Shown here: piece by piece, positions 16,486 through 44,274 of the stretch | Layout of the letters: every line of letters begins with the position of its first letter | Position numbering within the stretch: the stretch's first letter is position 1 | IMG/VR virus record: IMGVR_UViG_3300042348_001111 | Coordinates: 43,453 to 107,452 of that record | From: a virus | Lineage: Duplodnaviria > Heunggongvirae > Uroviricota > Caudoviricetes | DNA: 64,000 bases | Strand: one strand, 5' to 3' | Notes under the pieces: model-generated | The model's input: only the letters and a program-made list of their open reading frames with translations | Databases searched by the model: none | What the model was told of the DNA's origin: nothing | Program-made: the position numbers and the translations under genes

Positions 16486-16505
16486 GTTTGACCCACCACT
16501 GGCAT

Positions 16506-16540
16506 ACTGGTTAAAGTATGCTTTTAGCATGAAAACTTAC
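16506..16540 (+). terminator. Terminator-like hairpin (GCATACT...AGTATGC + TTTT)
   Basis: Seen in the sequence after the 16485 stop. Confidence 0.4.
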
Positions 16541-16893
16541 TAGTTCTCTGTTTTTACTATAACAATCTGACCGCACAGCTGAGTGCAAATGGTATTAATA
16601 GAGGTAAGCAGTTGTAATCTCCTTTGCTGGAGTTAAATAGGGGATTTATGACGCAGAACCAGTTACAACTTAGTGCTATACTTTGTCTAAAACAACTGCA
16701 GTGCATGAAGGGTGTTTACAAGGGTTGATCACCTTATTGCACCTACGAAGGCTTAACAAGCCACTTGAAACGTAGCACTGTGGTTGTTTTTAGACATTGT
16801 GTTGTTCCCTTGAGAAAGGAATATGGAAGCATAATAAATGGAAGGAAATTACGAACATTTTCCACAACACAGAGGACTTCTCATCCTCAACAC

Positions 16894-16989
16894 AGTCAGG
16901 TGGCGGAATGGTAAACGCTCGCTTCAAGGTGCGGTCAGTCAACGAAATGTAAAACTGACTTGCAGGTTCGAATCCTGTCCTGACTACCA
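16894..16989 (+). tRNA. tRNA-Leu (type II, long variable arm), probable anticodon CAA; 3' CCA is encoded
   Basis: 7-bp acceptor stem AGTCAGG/CCTGACT. D-arm GTGGCGGAATGGTAAACGC is typical of tRNA-Leu. T-arm GCAGG-TTCGAAT-CCTGT, discriminator A, then CCA. The anticodon region reads TTCAAGG, but the anticodon stem is irregular. Confidence 0.7.
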
Positions 16990-17411
16990 AGTTAACCACA
17001 CTAAGACTAGAAACGTGGTGACAGCGTGGAAAGACACGCGTTTAATGTACCATTCTCACGTGGATATAAAGACTTCTTAGTAGTAACCATAGGTTTACAG
17101 TAACAATACTGGATGAAATTCTCCTATGCAATATTGTTTATGCTCAAGAGATACTAAGATGTAAAACCACACTGATTAATTACAGGTTATCTAGATAACT
17201 TCTTCACAATATATATGTTTTAAACGCAACAAGAATGGTGAAGGTAAATCAGTCTCCCAAGGGTGAGCAGTTGTAATAGAGTAATGAAACATATAGAGTT
17301 GAGAAGTTAGCAAATAAATCTTCTTAATGTCCTAGCGGGCATTCCTATGTGTTAGTAATTACTAGTTTAAACCTATTACAACTAAGTGCAGAGGGAACGC
17401 GGCAAGTGCAA

Positions 17412-17456
17412 GGTGTCTGGTTTCTCATACCCAGGCACCTCACTTGTTGTTTTTTA
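17412..17456 (+). terminator. Terminator-like hairpin (GGTGTCTGG...CCAGGCACC) followed by a T-run
   Basis: Seen in the sequence. Confidence 0.35.
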
Positions 17457-17496
17457 AAACTTATTTGATATTAACTTTACAACTTAAATTTTAATT

Positions 17497-18248: not shown

Positions 18249-18294
18249 CCGCTAACTCGTTTATTTGTTCTATTAAAACCTAACCTTTAAATCT

Positions 18295-18981
18295 ATGAAC
18301 AAACTCCCCCAAAATTGGCTCATTGAAGTAACCGAAGGAAACCGCGAAGAACTCAACCGTTGGAGGAAAAAGGTCGCTACCGAGTATCGTGACCACTTTG
18401 TTAGAGTAGGGTACACCTTGCTCTCAAAGCATAAAGACGATGGAAGTTATTACTACTCCAATAACGCTCAAGAACTTAGGAATGACGAAGACTACAACGA
18501 CTACCAAGAAATCACACTCGAACAATTCCGTCAAATTACAAACCCAAACCAAAAACTTATGATAAAATCAATTAAAATTTCCCGCGAACTGCTCAACAAT
18601 TATTACAATGCCGCTACCGCCGCACAACAGGAGTACCTTACGGAACACTTCAAGTTGGATGGGACAACTACCAATGAAGCGATTCGTGGGTTATATCAGT
18701 TGGCTTGTGACACTTGGAAGCCACGCATTAAAGACAACCACCCTGATTGCTTTGAAAATGAGAAACATTTTGATTTCAGCGCAATTTCTGAAGAATCGAT
18801 CGTAGCGCCCAAAGTTGCTAAAGCACTTGGACTAAACGAAGATTTTATTCAGGTTAGAAACGGCTCAAATCCTAAACTACGCCATCGTTCGTTCTACCTG
18901 TCAACAGATTACAATTGGGAATTGGTAAACGATAATGATGGAGTAACTCCCATAATGGTACTACTTCCAACGAAGAAGTAG
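18295..18981 (+). CDS. Hypothetical protein whose N-terminal domain (about 85 aa) also occurs twice in the MoxR ATPase gene
   Basis: Residues 1-85 (NWLIEVTEGNREELNRWRKKVATEY...GYTLLSKH.DDGSYYY...DY.EITLEQFRQITNPN) align with both N-terminal repeats of the 27478 gene. Confidence 0.55.
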   Translation: MNKLPQNWLIEVTEGNREELNRWRKKVATEYRDHFVRVGYTLLSKHKDDGSYYYSNNAQELRNDEDYNDYQEITLEQFRQITNPNQKLMIKSIKISRELLNNYYNAATAAQQEYLTEHFKLDGTTTNEAIRGLYQLACDTWKPRIKDNHPDCFENEKHFDFSAISEESIVAPKVAKALGLNEDFIQVRNGSNPKLRHRSFYLSTDYNWELVNDNDGVTPIMVLLPTKK

Positions 18982-18997: not shown

Positions 18998-19128
18998 AGT
19001 CAGGTGGCGGAATTGAGCAGACGCTCCCACGGATAGTGGGGGGTTTAGGGAATAAGTAAAAAAATAGGTTAAACACTGATGTTTTTTGAATACCTAACAA
19101 ATACAGGTTCAAATCCTGTCCTGACTAC
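18998..19128 (+). tRNA. tRNA-Leu-like element interrupted by about 60 nt (pseudogene, or intron or insertion-bearing tRNA)
   Basis: Same 5' end (AGTCAGGTGGCGGAAT) and 3' end (CAGGTTCAAATCCTGTCCTGACTA) as the tRNA at 16894. It has a 5-bp stem with a 5-nt loop where the anticodon arm should be. About 60 nt then separate it from the T-arm. No CCA. Confidence 0.45.
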
Positions 19129-19169: not shown

Positions 19170-19397
19170 ATGAAAAAAATAGCATATGTAGTAAAAATTT
19201 ATTTAGACGATGGGAGAATATTTAAGTATTTTGTTGATTCTGCAGAAAAAGTTCGTGAACACGCATCTGCTATTGTAAAAGACGGATACAGGCACAATGA
19301 TGGAGAAGTATTTGAACACTATCCACCGCATAGAATTTTGAAGGTAAAAAGTGAAAACATACCAACCAATTATCCTGATATAGTAGAAGGTACTTAA
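19170..19397 (+). CDS. Hypothetical protein
   Basis: 75 aa. Its upstream context is almost identical to that of the 17497 gene. Confidence 0.4.
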   Translation: MKKIAYVVKIYLDDGRIFKYFVDSAEKVREHASAIVKDGYRHNDGEVFEHYPPHRILKVKSENIPTNYPDIVEGT

Positions 19398-19441
19398 TAT
19401 GTTAATTACCTAACCCCTAAACAATTTAATTTGAAACACAA

Positions 19442-19942
19442 ATGTTAGTAAACTTAACTCCAAATTGGAAAGAAATAGAAAGAAGAAGTGCCATATCAAA
19501 AGAGCACAATTTTGAATACATCCCGCAGTGTGATGAATCATGGATGCAGTTCGGTATTGGTGTTTACCAATGTAACATTGATTTTAATTTTTCTCACGAA
19601 GAGTTTTTAGAATTTGATGATATGGGTAGTATCCCATTTGACCAAAGTTATGAAGTTTTTGCTCCAAGTTATCTTAAAGCACAATATGGTGTTGGTGATA
19701 GTATTGAACAAATAAAAGAGTATTTTAAGAAAGAAATTGAAGACCCCAACAGGAAATACTTTATTACAGTAACACCTGTATTTCAAGATAAAGAAAATAA
19801 AGGCAAAGGTGGGGGATGGCGTTGGCACAAATGGGGTGAATACATTGGTAAGTTAGAACCTAAATGTGAATATTTAGATGATGAAAATTTTGGTGATGAC
19901 TTTGAATATGTAATTTGCTTTCACTTGTACGAGGTCAAATAA
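19442..19942 (+). CDS. Hypothetical protein
   Basis: 166-aa ORF in the AT-rich block. Confidence 0.4.
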   Translation: MLVNLTPNWKEIERRSAISKEHNFEYIPQCDESWMQFGIGVYQCNIDFNFSHEEFLEFDDMGSIPFDQSYEVFAPSYLKAQYGVGDSIEQIKEYFKKEIEDPNRKYFITVTPVFQDKENKGKGGGWRWHKWGEYIGKLEPKCEYLDDENFGDDFEYVICFHLYEVK

Positions 19943-19994
19943 CCCAACCCCCAACCTTTAAATTTAAAGTAATTGAAATTGTAAAAGAAAAGAA

Positions 19995-21085: not shown

Positions 21086-21946
21086 ATGAAAAACATACGC
21101 GTATTACCAACAAACAAACCAAGTAAATTATATTTTTGGGAAGACAAATTAGTATTTGGTAGATTAGCAACTACACCAATGAACAGAAACATCTACATTA
21201 CTTCCGATGAAGAAATTAAAGAAGGGGATTATGTGGGTTATCCTACACTTAATAATTGGGTTCCTGTTAAATATTTAGGAGGTGACTTAACAGGTGGTGA
21301 GAAAAAAATCATTCTAACAACAGACCCCGACTTAATAAAAGATGGTGTACAAGCTATTGATGATGAGTTTTTAGAATGGTTTATTAATAATCCAAGTTGT
21401 GAGTGGGTTGAGGTTAATCATTTTGGTATGTGTTGTAGTAATCAATTAATTGCTCAATGTATTAATTGTAATCAATATAATCCTATTTACAAAATAATCA
21501 TTCCAAAAGAACCTAAACAAGAATGGACTCCAACACAAGGAGAACAAGTTTGGATTAAAGTCTTTTCAAATTGGTCGAGTGGGACATATATTGGTTATGA
21601 TACAACTAAACATATTCATTTAGTAAGGGAAAATGAAGAAGGTGGGGGCAATTTACTTTCAAGCAGTAAAATATTACCTTATAAGTCAATGCCAAATGAA
21701 CCTAAACAAGAAACACTTGAAGAAGCTGTTGAAAGATTATTTCCTTTCACAAAAGATGATTCTGAAAATAGAATTATAACCATTAAACGCCTTTTTTGGA
21801 TTGAAGGTATTAAATGGCAACAAGAAAGAATGTATAGTGAGGAAGAAGTATTCAATCTATGTCGTGAGTTTGCAATATTTGTACAGCGTAACGGGCCGAG
21901 TTATAAGAAACAACAAGAGTGGTTTGAGCAATTTAAAAAGAAATAA
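21086..21946 (+). CDS. Hypothetical protein sharing a C-terminal module with the next gene
   Basis: C-terminus WQQERMYSEEEVFNLCREF...QQEWFEQFKKK. Confidence 0.45.
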   Translation: MKNIRVLPTNKPSKLYFWEDKLVFGRLATTPMNRNIYITSDEEIKEGDYVGYPTLNNWVPVKYLGGDLTGGEKKIILTTDPDLIKDGVQAIDDEFLEWFINNPSCEWVEVNHFGMCCSNQLIAQCINCNQYNPIYKIIIPKEPKQEWTPTQGEQVWIKVFSNWSSGTYIGYDTTKHIHLVRENEEGGGNLLSSSKILPYKSMPNEPKQETLEEAVERLFPFTKDDSENRIITIKRLFWIEGIKWQQERMYSEEEVFNLCREFAIFVQRNGPSYKKQQEWFEQFKKK

Positions 21947-21949
21947 GAT

Positions 21950-22285
21950 ATGAATAACAATTTAGAATTTGAAAATGAAGACCCATCTCCTGATAGTATA
22001 GAAGACAATCATCCAAGAACTAATTATGGAGAAGGTTATGGCGGTAAAGAAACACTTGAAGAAGTTGCCCATGAAATGCTTGTTGATTATGGAATTAAGT
22101 CAATAGGTCAAAGTATAGGAGTTCCAACAGTTAAAAAACTTATGGTGAATATGGCTAAATGGCAAGCTGAAAGAATGTATAGTGAGGAAGAAGTGTTAAA
22201 CATTTTACAAGAGTTTAAAAGGTATTTATCTTTTGGAGATGAAATTTCACAAGCAGAATGGTTTGAACAATTTATAAAGAAATAA
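21950..22285 (+). CDS. Hypothetical protein carrying the same C-terminal module
   Basis: C-terminus WQAERMYSEEEVLNILQEF...QAEWFEQFIKK. Confidence 0.45.
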   Translation: MNNNLEFENEDPSPDSIEDNHPRTNYGEGYGGKETLEEVAHEMLVDYGIKSIGQSIGVPTVKKLMVNMAKWQAERMYSEEEVLNILQEFKRYLSFGDEISQAEWFEQFIKK

Positions 22286-43224: not shown

Positions 43225-44274
43225 ATGTTCAAGTCTTTTAATGCAAATGAAGTGCATGCACCTTCAAAACCGCCATTAAATATGACACATTCAGCATCGC
43301 ATGGTGATGCTATTACTTCCAAAAAACCTTGGAAACGCTATGGAGATATCATGACTGAAAGTCTTGACTATCTTAGAAAGCGTTCTAATGGTTCATTAAA
43401 GTCACTCAAAACACAATGGCCAACCTTTAACAAGATAGGTCTCAATGGTATTGAGTGGCAATCTTTATATGTAATTGCTGCAAGACCGGGTGTGGGTAAA
43501 ACACTTATAGCAGCATCCTTAACTAGAGAATTGCAGGTGCTTAATCATGAACAAGATTTTGCTGTTTTGCATTTTCAATTTGAAATGTTAGGTCGGAATA
43601 TGGCAATGCGCGAACTATCAAGCGCCACCAATCTGAACATACGCTACATGCAAAGCGCTCAAGATGATGGTCTTCCTCCTCTCAAAGTTGAAGACTTAAG
43701 AAAACTTGAAAGCTATGCGTTAACCCAAAGAGAAAGACAAGAATATATTATTGACAAAGCTTTGACTGTCAATGAAATGCAAAATTCTATCATAAGTTTT
43801 TACAATGACGTAAAAAAACCTGTAGTAGTAACTCTTGACCATACTTTGCTTGTAAAGCAAGGAGCATCTGAAACCAGCAGACAGCAAACCTTGCAAAATC
43901 TAGCAACCATGCTGACAGAAATGAAGAACAGACTTCCTGTTACATTTTTGATTTTGACACAGCTCAATCGTGACATTGATGACGCAGAAAGGCAAAAACC
44001 TGGGATGCTTAGCAACTATCCCACAGAAGCTGACGTTTTTGGTAGTGATTATCTTTTGCAATGTGCAGATGTAATGATTGCGTATAATCGTCCTGCAAAA
44101 TACAACCTGGCTCTATATGGACCCCAGCGTTTTGAAATTACTGACAAATACTTATTGGCAATGCATGTACTTAAAAATCGTTTTGGTGAGCCTGCAATAT
44201 ACTGGTACAAAGCGCAATATGAAACTATGACAATAACTGAATCACCAATACCTAGAATGATACCTAAAAAATAA
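43225..44274 (+). CDS. DnaB-like replicative helicase (RecA-fold C-terminal domain, short N-terminus)
   Basis: LYVIAARPGVGKT (Walker A H1), FQFEMLGRN and ILTQLNRD (H4-like). The first ATG is at 43225. Confidence 0.7.
   Translation: MFKSFNANEVHAPSKPPLNMTHSASHGDAITSKKPWKRYGDIMTESLDYLRKRSNGSLKSLKTQWPTFNKIGLNGIEWQSLYVIAARPGVGKTLIAASLTRELQVLNHEQDFAVLHFQFEMLGRNMAMRELSSATNLNIRYMQSAQDDGLPPLKVEDLRKLESYALTQRERQEYIIDKALTVNEMQNSIISFYNDVKKPVVVTLDHTLLVKQGASETSRQQTLQNLATMLTEMKNRLPVTFLILTQLNRDIDDAERQKPGMLSNYPTEADVFGSDYLLQCADVMIAYNRPAKYNLALYGPQRFEITDKYLLAMHVLKNRFGEPAIYWYKAQYETMTITESPIPRMIPKK

Follow-up and report, generated by a model that had tools for sequence, protein, structure and literature searches.

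A tRNA-Leu-shaped phage gene lacking an anticodon arm: one member of a large, apparently undescribed family of putative non-decoding viral RNAs with swapped middles

In the engineered "tRNA scaffold" (Ponchon and Dardel; PMC3753655), man-made on human tRNA-Lys3 or Escherichia coli tRNA-Met frames, the acceptor, T and D arms of a transfer RNA (tRNA) are kept and a structured insert replaces the anticodon stem-loop. The chimera is recognised and processed by cellular tRNA enzymes in E. coli, and the RNA is nuclease-resistant, with its insert shielded (PMC3753655). I find an identical layout in a 130-nucleotide (nt) gene at positions 18998–19127, on the + strand, of a 64,000-nt stretch of DNA from an uncultivated virus of the Caudoviricetes (IMG/VR record IMGVR_UViG_3300042348_001111, positions 43,453 to 107,452 of that record; hereafter the window, to which all coordinates refer), where the upper half of a tRNA-Leu is retained and the anticodon arm is absent. 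By its sequence the gene is near-certainly a member of a family of phage genes, built on what is apparently a natural tRNA-Leu frame, whose inserts, unlike those of the scaffold, also occupy the variable-arm position and sometimes the D loop.

The nearest natural precedent, judged by predicted architecture, appears to be T4 species 1 RNA (rnaC, 139 nt; NC_000866 70908–71046), which is likewise phage-encoded and lies at the end of a tRNA cluster, beside the GIY-YIG gene segB. It is annotated as a small stable RNA. In its predicted fold the ends are base-paired, beside a canonical T arm (CCGGGUUCGAAUCCCGG), and two long hairpins occupy the middle. Unlike the family described here, it shows no recognisable D arm in that fold, and there is no evident sequence relation between the two, which are compared by architecture only; moreover, rnaC is a single gene of T-even phages with enterobacterial hosts, not a family with interchangeable inserts. 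It is not known to have an assigned function.

Canonical phage tRNA-Leu genes (type II) have an identical D arm (GGCGGAATTGGTAGACGC), and A73, the T arm, the U8/A14/A15-U48 core and the flanks are common to both groups. These genes are 81–86 nt long with a 7-nt loop and Leu anticodons, whereas family members span 54–279 nt, possess a special acceptor and have no anticodon loop. Transfer-messenger RNA (tmRNA, SsrA) similarly joins a tRNA-like top half, made of acceptor and T arm, to a large structured middle, and is processed by RNase P, charged and bound by EF-Tu (PMC3985003). It is set apart by a G3.U70 alanine identity, the absence of a D stem, pseudoknots, and a tag reading frame with its resume codon. 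A tmRNA identity for the 18998 gene was rejected, as position 3-70 is U-A, a D stem is present, and neither ARAGORN in its -m mode nor the Rfam tmRNA models gave a match. Genuine tmRNAs are encoded separately in related phage contigs: ARAGORN finds tmRNA genes of 373–444 nt, with predicted tags ending in ALAA, AVAA or LAA, in five family-bearing contigs (L011, L053, L067, L077 and L290). Two further precedents show that RNAs derived from tRNA can act outside decoding. The tRNA-Other of Bacillus cereus (PMC3399842) has a near-normal cloverleaf and does not form a modular family; in bacterial Y RNA (PMC4201824) the tRNA-like module sits within the Ro-binding stem, with no swapped inserts, and Y RNA identity was rejected for the 18998 gene. 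No description of the family was found in Rfam 15 or by full-text searches of the literature, one of them for the frame sequence. In a large survey of structured RNA candidates from viruses only a handful are tRNA-like, and these overlap ARAGORN calls (PMC10690425); family members may lie hidden in such catalogues. A large phage RNA family combining a tRNA-Leu frame with swapped middles nevertheless seems to be undescribed.

The initial annotation of this DNA, made without database searches, had noted that the ends of the gene match those of a gene at 16894. This holds for the first 16 and the last 24 bases. The window contains the 16-mer AGTCAGGTGGCGGAAT exactly two times (at 16894 and 18998), and likewise the 24-mer CAGGTTCRAATCCTGTCCTGACTA (at 16963 and 19104), which is found in none of 100 shuffles. 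Aligned over their length, the two genes differ at their ends by a single G/A in the T loop, while their middles are unrelated and of unequal length; the word "replaced", which the annotation had used of the middle, is accurate.

The 5′ strand of the acceptor stem, AGTCAGG (18998–19004), follows directly on the predicted mature 5′ end, a putative RNase P site before 18998, and the same 7-mer is present at 16894 and in 283 distinct family elements. U8-G9 and a D arm of the tRNA-Leu type span 19005–19024, with a 3-bp stem GCG/CGC (19007–19009 with 19022–19024) and the loop GAATTGAGCAGA, which does not contain the usual G18G19. In place of the anticodon arm stands a hairpin, UCCCAC-GGAUA-GUGGGG (19025–19041), which has neither U33 nor a 7-nt loop. 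The annotation had given it a 5-bp stem and a 5-nt loop; the hairpin is predicted here too, and its stem extends by a U.G pair to 6 bp. As the annotation also stated, about 60 nt with a hairpin of their own follow. This is a private insert of 61 nt in the variable-arm place (19042–19102), drawn in the constrained fold as an irregular hairpin, which UUAGG/CCUAA closes and which contains an A7/U6 helix further in. U48 at 19102 precedes a 5-bp T arm, ACAGG-TTCAAAT-CCTGT (19103–19119), and the gene ends with the 3′ acceptor strand CCTGACT and the discriminator A73 (19120–19127, with A73 at 19127); since CTA follows, the gene does not encode CCA. The 5′ frame equals the family consensus AGTCAGG-TG-GCGG-AAT... 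at 16/16 bases, and the 3′ frame is an exact family match, U48-ACAGG-TTCRAAT-CCTGT-CCTGACT-A73 followed by C (19102–19128). Between the D arm and U48 the insert measures 78 nt, inside the family length range. Like both neighbouring open reading frames (ORFs), the gene is on the + strand; it lies 16 nt 3′ of the stop of ORF 18295–18981 and 42 nt 5′ of the start codon ATG at 19170.

When the tRNA helices are imposed on the 130-mer, a cloverleaf of −34.1 kcal/mol results, in which the acceptor, D and T arms all form in the register of a canonical tRNA, as had been claimed. The unconstrained minimum free energy fold reaches −39.5 kcal/mol (z = −3.1) and retains the acceptor stem, formed by 18998–19004 with 19120–19126 in both folds, and the hairpin with the 5-nt loop.

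Programs that search for tRNAs pass over the gene. In this region ARAGORN makes a single call, at 16894 ("tRNA-???", with an 8-nt loop), and none at 18998 in its default, intron (0–3000 nt), pseudogene or tmRNA modes. The Rfam tRNA model (RF00005) yields 16.4 bits (E = 7.4) against a threshold of 29, for a 3′ fragment at 19043–19127. The intron-permissive search proposed in the initial annotation, run here with ARAGORN, thus recovered no normal tRNA or standard anticodon loop, and the combination of a 5-bp stem, a 7-nt loop, U33 and an anticodon is absent at 18998, where the loop is GGAUA, of 5 nt. An intron-bearing tRNA was rejected as an identity for the gene: besides the silence of ARAGORN with introns of 0–3000 nt, there is no Rfam intron match, and the insert amounts to just 61–78 nt. 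The family inserts are too short to be group I or group II introns, and they match no intron family in Rfam.

The sibling gene at 16894–16989 (+) has the same frame, with CCA encoded. A 3-bp stem with the 8-nt loop TTCAAGGT takes the place of the anticodon arm, and the variable arm is a 26-nt hairpin. ARAGORN reports it as "tRNA-??? (caag)", that is with a 4-base anticodon CAAG, and the Rfam tRNA model gives it 41 bits. Relatives of the same type are found in three other contigs (L009, L266 and L257). The 8-nt loop is TTCAAGGT in two members and TAGAAGGT in L266, so neither the "U33" nor the "anticodon" is conserved, while a compensatory change is seen in the variable-arm stem. The initial annotation had taken the 16894 gene as its reference tRNA; the shared ends stand, and the reference itself proves to be non-canonical and of the same family.

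Copies of the family were gathered by an exact match to its 3′ end. Well over 200 uncultivated viral contigs carry the frame, AGTCAGGTGGCGGAAT...ACAGGTTCRAATCCTGTCCTGACTA. The 3′ motif GGTTCRAATCCTGTCCTGACTA is found in at least 120 IMG/VR viral-contig stretches, often with 2–6 copies each (at least 119 stretches for the TTCAAAT form alone), and AGTCAGG with a D arm of the tRNA-Leu type, consensus AGTCAGGTGGCGGAATTGGTAGACGC, lies at a varying distance upstream of nearly all matches. The 360 copies collected comprise 283 distinct elements with a median length of 105 nt (range 54–279), whose inserts between D arm and U48 are about 16–230 nt long (median 55) and fall into 227 clusters by similarity of the middle. 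Single genomes hold several copies with different inserts. Some members carry a further insert of 30–70 nt within the D loop, between A15/U16 and G18 (L022, L289, L244, L106, L266, L070 and L054), in some cases containing T-arm-like hairpins such as GGTTCGAATCC in L244. These modules are mixed: a given D-loop insert is combined with different middles (L289, L022), and elements that share a middle may have or lack that insert (L067, L289). Against the Rfam tRNA model family members score 31–50 bits, compared to 55–70 for real tRNAs, or give no score, and they match no other model.

The frame was matched in none of 50,697 isolate phage records. Among 185,579 species genomes it is present only on 23 contigs of metagenome-assembled genomes, mostly assigned to Chitinophagia, Sediminibacterium, Flavobacterium, Saprospirales and other Bacteroidota from lakes. 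As all genome matches are such contigs and none is an isolate, this is a phage frame, a host tRNA being unlikely; freshwater Bacteroidota are the probable hosts. In ten other contigs (L353, L363, L371, L375, L380, L384, L416, L419, L427 and L459) only the first ∼39 nt of a tRNA-Leu (GCGGATGTGGCGGAATTGGTAGACGCGCTAGTTTCAGGT) are found, followed by unrelated sequence; these look like partial-tRNA attachment sites and are unrelated to the family.

The frame is conserved well beyond its surroundings. The first 16 nt, which lie outside the search pattern, are 92% identical to the consensus, while protein homologues between the loci have a median identity of 44%. Unpaired bases of the tRNA tertiary core are kept in most members (U8 in 97%, A14A15 in 84%, the D-loop GG in 91% and U48 in 88%). 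Scans that left the acceptor free revealed the same architecture with five other acceptor stems, AAGACAG/CTGTCTT, TACTACG/CGTAGTA, GGTATCG/CGRTACC, GCTTTGG/CCAAAGC and GGAGAAG/CTTCTCC, and A73 is kept in all six lineages. With the middles excised, 10 of the 15 frame base pairs show compensatory double changes across these lineages and none is broken, a result that is supportive and not an unbiased statistic, the sequences having been picked by hand with acceptor partners required to form at least 6 of 7 pairs. Since they covary, the frame helices are RNA helices. Ten contigs (L386, L396, L404, L378, L393, L409, L398, L431, L307 and L311) hold Leu-type D and T arms with long non-canonical middles, A73, and acceptors changed on both sides that still pair; the middle in L409 apparently contains a whole extra tRNA-like unit. 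As a control, a scan with the D arm alone retrieved ordinary phage tRNA-Leu genes of 81–86 nt, of which 59 of 85 were called Leu by ARAGORN; the AGTCAGG copies within that scan were 100–139 nt long, and none of the five was called.

The inserts themselves are also conserved, each within its type. In 73 pairs of same-type elements whose flanks are both less than 70% identical, the middles are 85% identical and the 5′ frames 88%, while the flanking 50–60 nt are at ∼50%, which is background. Each insert type is conserved as a unit with its frame, and compensatory changes were found inside inserts. Their folding energies relative to shuffles have a mean z of −1.05, with 16% below −2. For the whole 78-nt middle of the 18998 gene, z is about −2.0. 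In the hairpin that comes first after the D arm, loop sizes in the family range over 3–21 nt, most often 4, and do not peak at 7. ARAGORN calls only 36 of 160 copies, assigning them to scattered amino acids and giving them anticodon stems with mismatches. The family elements have nothing able to serve as an anticodon loop. The initial annotation had offered three explanations for the gene, and that of a tRNA with an unconventional intron or insertion is not supported, no canonical anticodon stem-loop being recoverable. The third, a tRNA-like structured RNA with another role, is supported by membership of a very large family with an invariant frame and unrelated middles.

In bacteria, a U at position −1, the D/T elbow and an intact minihelix of acceptor and T arm are the features by which RNase P, RNase Z and the CCA-adding enzyme select their substrates. 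A T stands at −1 in 231 of the 283 elements and in 492 of the 714 canonical tRNAs found at these loci; those that encode CCA number 7/283 and 63/714, respectively. The base after A73 is C in ∼95% of elements. A canonical tRNA lies within 1 kb of 43% of them, and in some loci, which are dense tRNA arrays, real tRNAs and family members follow each other in turn. The elements carry the same flanking signatures as real tRNA genes.

On balance I favour, with some reserve, the reading that 18998–19127 encodes a non-decoding small RNA on a tRNA-Leu frame, in which the frame would provide processing and stability and the insert would be the working domain. The acceptor stem, A73, U8, A14/A15, U48, the D stem and the T arm are kept, and the private 78-nt insert stands in place of the anticodon and variable arms. 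The RNA would be transcribed along with its co-oriented neighbours; RNase P would free the 5′ end, RNase Z or exonucleases would act after A73, and CCA would then be added. The tRNA shape would ensure correct processing and stability, and this division of labour between frame and insert is suggested because the architecture is that of the engineered scaffold. The insert might act as an aptamer-like or decoy domain for a host or phage factor; reading of codons by such an RNA would be impossible. The RNA could in addition be charged with leucine, since the retained features are those used by bacterial leucyl-tRNA synthetase (LeuRS), although the absence of G18G19 from the 18998 copy argues against efficient charging.

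A broader form of this proposal is possible, and I put it forward tentatively: freshwater Bacteroidota phages may hold a natural, evolving library of tRNA-framed, aptamer-like RNAs, whose cargoes would bind different host or phage factors and would pass from phage to phage through recombination at the invariant ends. One tRNA-Leu top half would then serve as a universal handle for processing, stability and perhaps leucylation, with hundreds of interchangeable cargo domains in the anticodon/variable position and in the D loop.

Several observations weigh against a working insert on a tRNA frame. The T-arm bases of the 18998 gene are re-paired in the unconstrained fold, which disrupts the T arm, so the cloverleaf is feasible and is not the computed optimum. 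Its D loop, without G18G19, should weaken the tRNA elbow; the gene is among the ∼8% of the family without this GG, which is frequent and not defining, and the same variant, AATWGAGCAGA, is present in nine viral stretches. The energy z-score of the insert is only about −2. The insert also has no diverged relatives, being known in identical copies only: BLAST found no relative of the middle among the 283 family elements, an exact scan of viral contigs for the insert string GACGCTCCCACGGATAGTGGGG returned no match, as did the fetched loci, none of the nine stretches sharing the D-loop variant carries it, and a metagenome scan that left the loop free gave 38 chance matches in GC-rich, unrelated DNA. 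The predicted fold of this insert consequently has no comparative support. Among the inserts of the family no shared motif was found beyond mis-parsed remnants of the D arm. Within the 64-kb window the longest complementarity to a possible antisense target is 11 nt, no better than in shuffles. No cargo is known to have a ligand or target, and no obligate partner protein was found, the best protein family occurring in 28 of the 254 family loci over which neighbourhoods were counted. The exact 3′ match by which copies were collected inflates the apparent invariance of the frame, and the covariation was obtained on hand-picked sequences under the pairing requirement given above. Processing, CCA addition, stability and charging are all inferred. 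Finally, the invariance of the AGTCAGG acceptor exceeds the needs of a processing handle, which hints that the top half is read by something specific.

This last point bears on the main alternative, itself unlikely, in which the function would reside in the conserved top half. On that view the RNA would mimic tRNA-Leu, either as a non-translational leucine donor or as a decoy or sponge that occupies LeuRS, EF-Tu, the CCA-adding enzyme or a defence nuclease directed at tRNAs, and the middle would just have to be non-decoding and compact. Leucine identity resides in A73 together with the tertiary core, and aminoacylation does not require the anticodon arm (PMC2377443). The family keeps exactly this bacterial identity set (A73, U8-A14, A15-U48, G18G19 and the T loop; PMC2377443), with A73 retained through all acceptor lineages, and its frame is invariant across hundreds of copies in sequence, beyond what structure requires, over inserts that have no motif in common. 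Phage tRNAs can also counter tRNA-cleaving defences (PMC11555353). Mere filler, however, would not be ∼85% conserved within types in unrelated flanks, with compensatory changes, and several copies with different inserts in one genome would be redundant for a pure decoy. The 18998 gene itself is without G18G19, which are critical for leucylation (PMC2377443). A working insert and a working top half are compatible with each other and not exclusive.

It is rather improbable that the fold is only a punctuation or processing signal, serving RNase P/RNase Z cutting between genes or protection of the 3′ end of the upstream mRNA, with the excised RNA having no role. The position of the 18998 gene, just past one stop and just before the next start, would suit such a signal, as would the T at −1, typical of tRNA precursors, and the co-orientation of 77% of family copies with both flanking ORFs. 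It would leave unexplained the length and diversity of the inserts, their conservation within types and their structural compensation, as well as the recurrence of D-loop insert modules; many copies, besides, lie in tRNA arrays and not between protein genes.

I consider it more doubtful still that the element acts at the level of DNA, its ends being recombination or homing sites of a portable homology region or a cassette resembling a miniature inverted-repeat transposable element, which would shuffle its neighbours. Some loci do have this appearance. At L248:1903–2343 (also in L301), a partial 5′ frame copy (ATAGTCAGGTGGCGAAAT) is followed by an 83-amino-acid ORF and then by a full element whose first 18 nt are identical to it, so that the 5′ end of the frame is directly repeated on either side of an inserted small gene. 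"Solo" frames with the interior deleted are found at L046:4568 and L065:6722 (e.g. AATCAGGTGGGGGAATCCTGTCCTGACTA); because these fuse the D-loop GGAAT to the T-loop GAATCC, deletion at short homologies is suggested. The D-loop and middle modules recombine, as seen in L067, L289 and L022. T4 SegB targets a T-arm motif of tRNAs (PMC2330249), and GIY-YIG endonuclease genes are found in 21/254 loci, where they are, with terminase and helicase genes, simply common phage genes. What speaks against a DNA-level role is that compensatory changes preserve all three helices in six acceptor lineages, and that unpaired bases with a role only in tRNA tertiary structure (U8, A14, GG, U48 and the T loop) are conserved. 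The mosaic breakpoints near the 18998 gene lie elsewhere, at 19421 and 19943 in a match to the viral contig L144, and upstream of ORF 18295 in the variant contigs L187 and L189. Recombination at the frame ends is probably a by-product of their conservation.

A decaying duplicate or pseudogene, derived from the 16894 gene or from a phage tRNA-Leu and also considered in the initial annotation, is very improbable. The lack of a call by any tRNA finder, the loss of the D-loop GG and the absence of relatives of the insert would fit. Decay would hit the frame too, yet the frame far outlasts the phage proteins in conservation, at 92% identity versus 44%; the tertiary-core bases are kept, and middles remain ∼85% identical in unrelated flanks. 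At 18998 both ends are base-perfect around a wholly different and longer middle, a pattern repeated hundreds of times with conserved frames, and the element is identical on seven metagenome contigs from independent assemblies, including variants that differ in their upstream genes. Lastly, that this is a real decoding tRNA, with a removable unconventional intron or for unusual (e.g. quadruplet) codons, I regard as scarcely credible: the frame is tRNA-Leu-like and the sibling loop is read as CAAG by ARAGORN, but 18998 has no 7- or 8-nt loop and is silent in intron-permissive mode, the inserts are below the size of self-splicing introns and match no Rfam intron, loop sizes are scattered in the family, and L266 does not keep the 16894-type loop.

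The window is the early/replication region of a ∼121-kb phage genome; it encodes CobS/CobT-like proteins, helicases, a primase and a ribonucleotide reductase and is distantly related to Cellulophaga phage phi10:1. Orthologous loci in related phages, a comparison that the annotation had proposed, were sought by way of the neighbouring proteins. An exact-protein look-up gave identical copies of the element only, and ORF 19442–19942 led to L144, with which that one gene alone is shared. ORF 18295–18981 has no relatives in viral contigs. ORF 19442–19942 (within 19421–19943) is 98% identical in DNA to part of the 219-kb viral contig L144, with sharp mosaic boundaries at 19421 and 19943 and the rest of the region unshared, and it has a 66%-identical match in Cellulophaga phage phi10:1. 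In L187 and L189, two metagenome variants of the same phage, several extra small ORFs lie between a 65-amino-acid ORF and ORF 18295–18981 (window 18250–18295). The tRNA-like element is identical in both, so that this is population-level variation of gene cassettes. Lake samples in which this phage is present include JGI 3300042444, 3300043772 and 3300057158. A repeated short protein module (...ETLEEA...KWQAERMYSEEEV...) is found in several small ORFs at 21086–22285, and modules of this ETLEEA type are the commonest neighbouring protein cluster, in the 28/254 family loci mentioned above.

Directly 5′ of the 16894 element, at 16796–16893 (+), lies a conserved, structured leader, which is absent upstream of the 18998 gene. 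Its ∼100 nt run from TGTGTTGT through TCCCTTGAGAAAGGAAT, a variable hairpin and ACAACACA to GAGGACTTCTCATCCTC. The consensus fold comprises a TGTGTTGT/ACAACACA helix around a GAGA-loop hairpin and the variable hairpin, followed by a covarying GAGGA/TCCTC hairpin. Thirty-five copies were found, in 28/254 family loci, always 5′ of a family element or of a canonical tRNA. The leader at 16796–16893 has no Rfam match; it could be a leader of tRNA operons, a processing element or a ribozyme. The surrounding ∼1 kb (16486–17496) is free of ORFs. It contains non-coding modules conserved in other viral loci (17041–17088, 17247–17283 and 17373–17397) and paralogous stem modules at 16603–16676 and 17262–17389 (AGTTGTAAT/ATTACAACT), and ends in a terminator-like hairpin at about 17405–17455. 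This region may encode one or more further non-coding RNAs.

The family is invisible in phage annotation, because tRNA finders and Rfam either miss its genes or mislabel them as odd tRNAs with random anticodons. It is a gene class present in hundreds of viral contigs, with several members per genome, and may distort analyses of tRNA content and codon usage. If expressed, it would mean that phages use the top half of a tRNA as a general chassis for diverse structured RNAs, and would constitute a pool of natural RNA domains. The family would also open the small stable tRNA-like RNAs of T4 to comparative study, and would supply naturally optimised insertion points for scaffold design, namely the anticodon/variable region and D-loop positions 16/17. 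Should the view of an evolving library prove true, these phages would harbour a new class of modular viral non-coding RNA, a natural counterpart of the tRNA scaffold.

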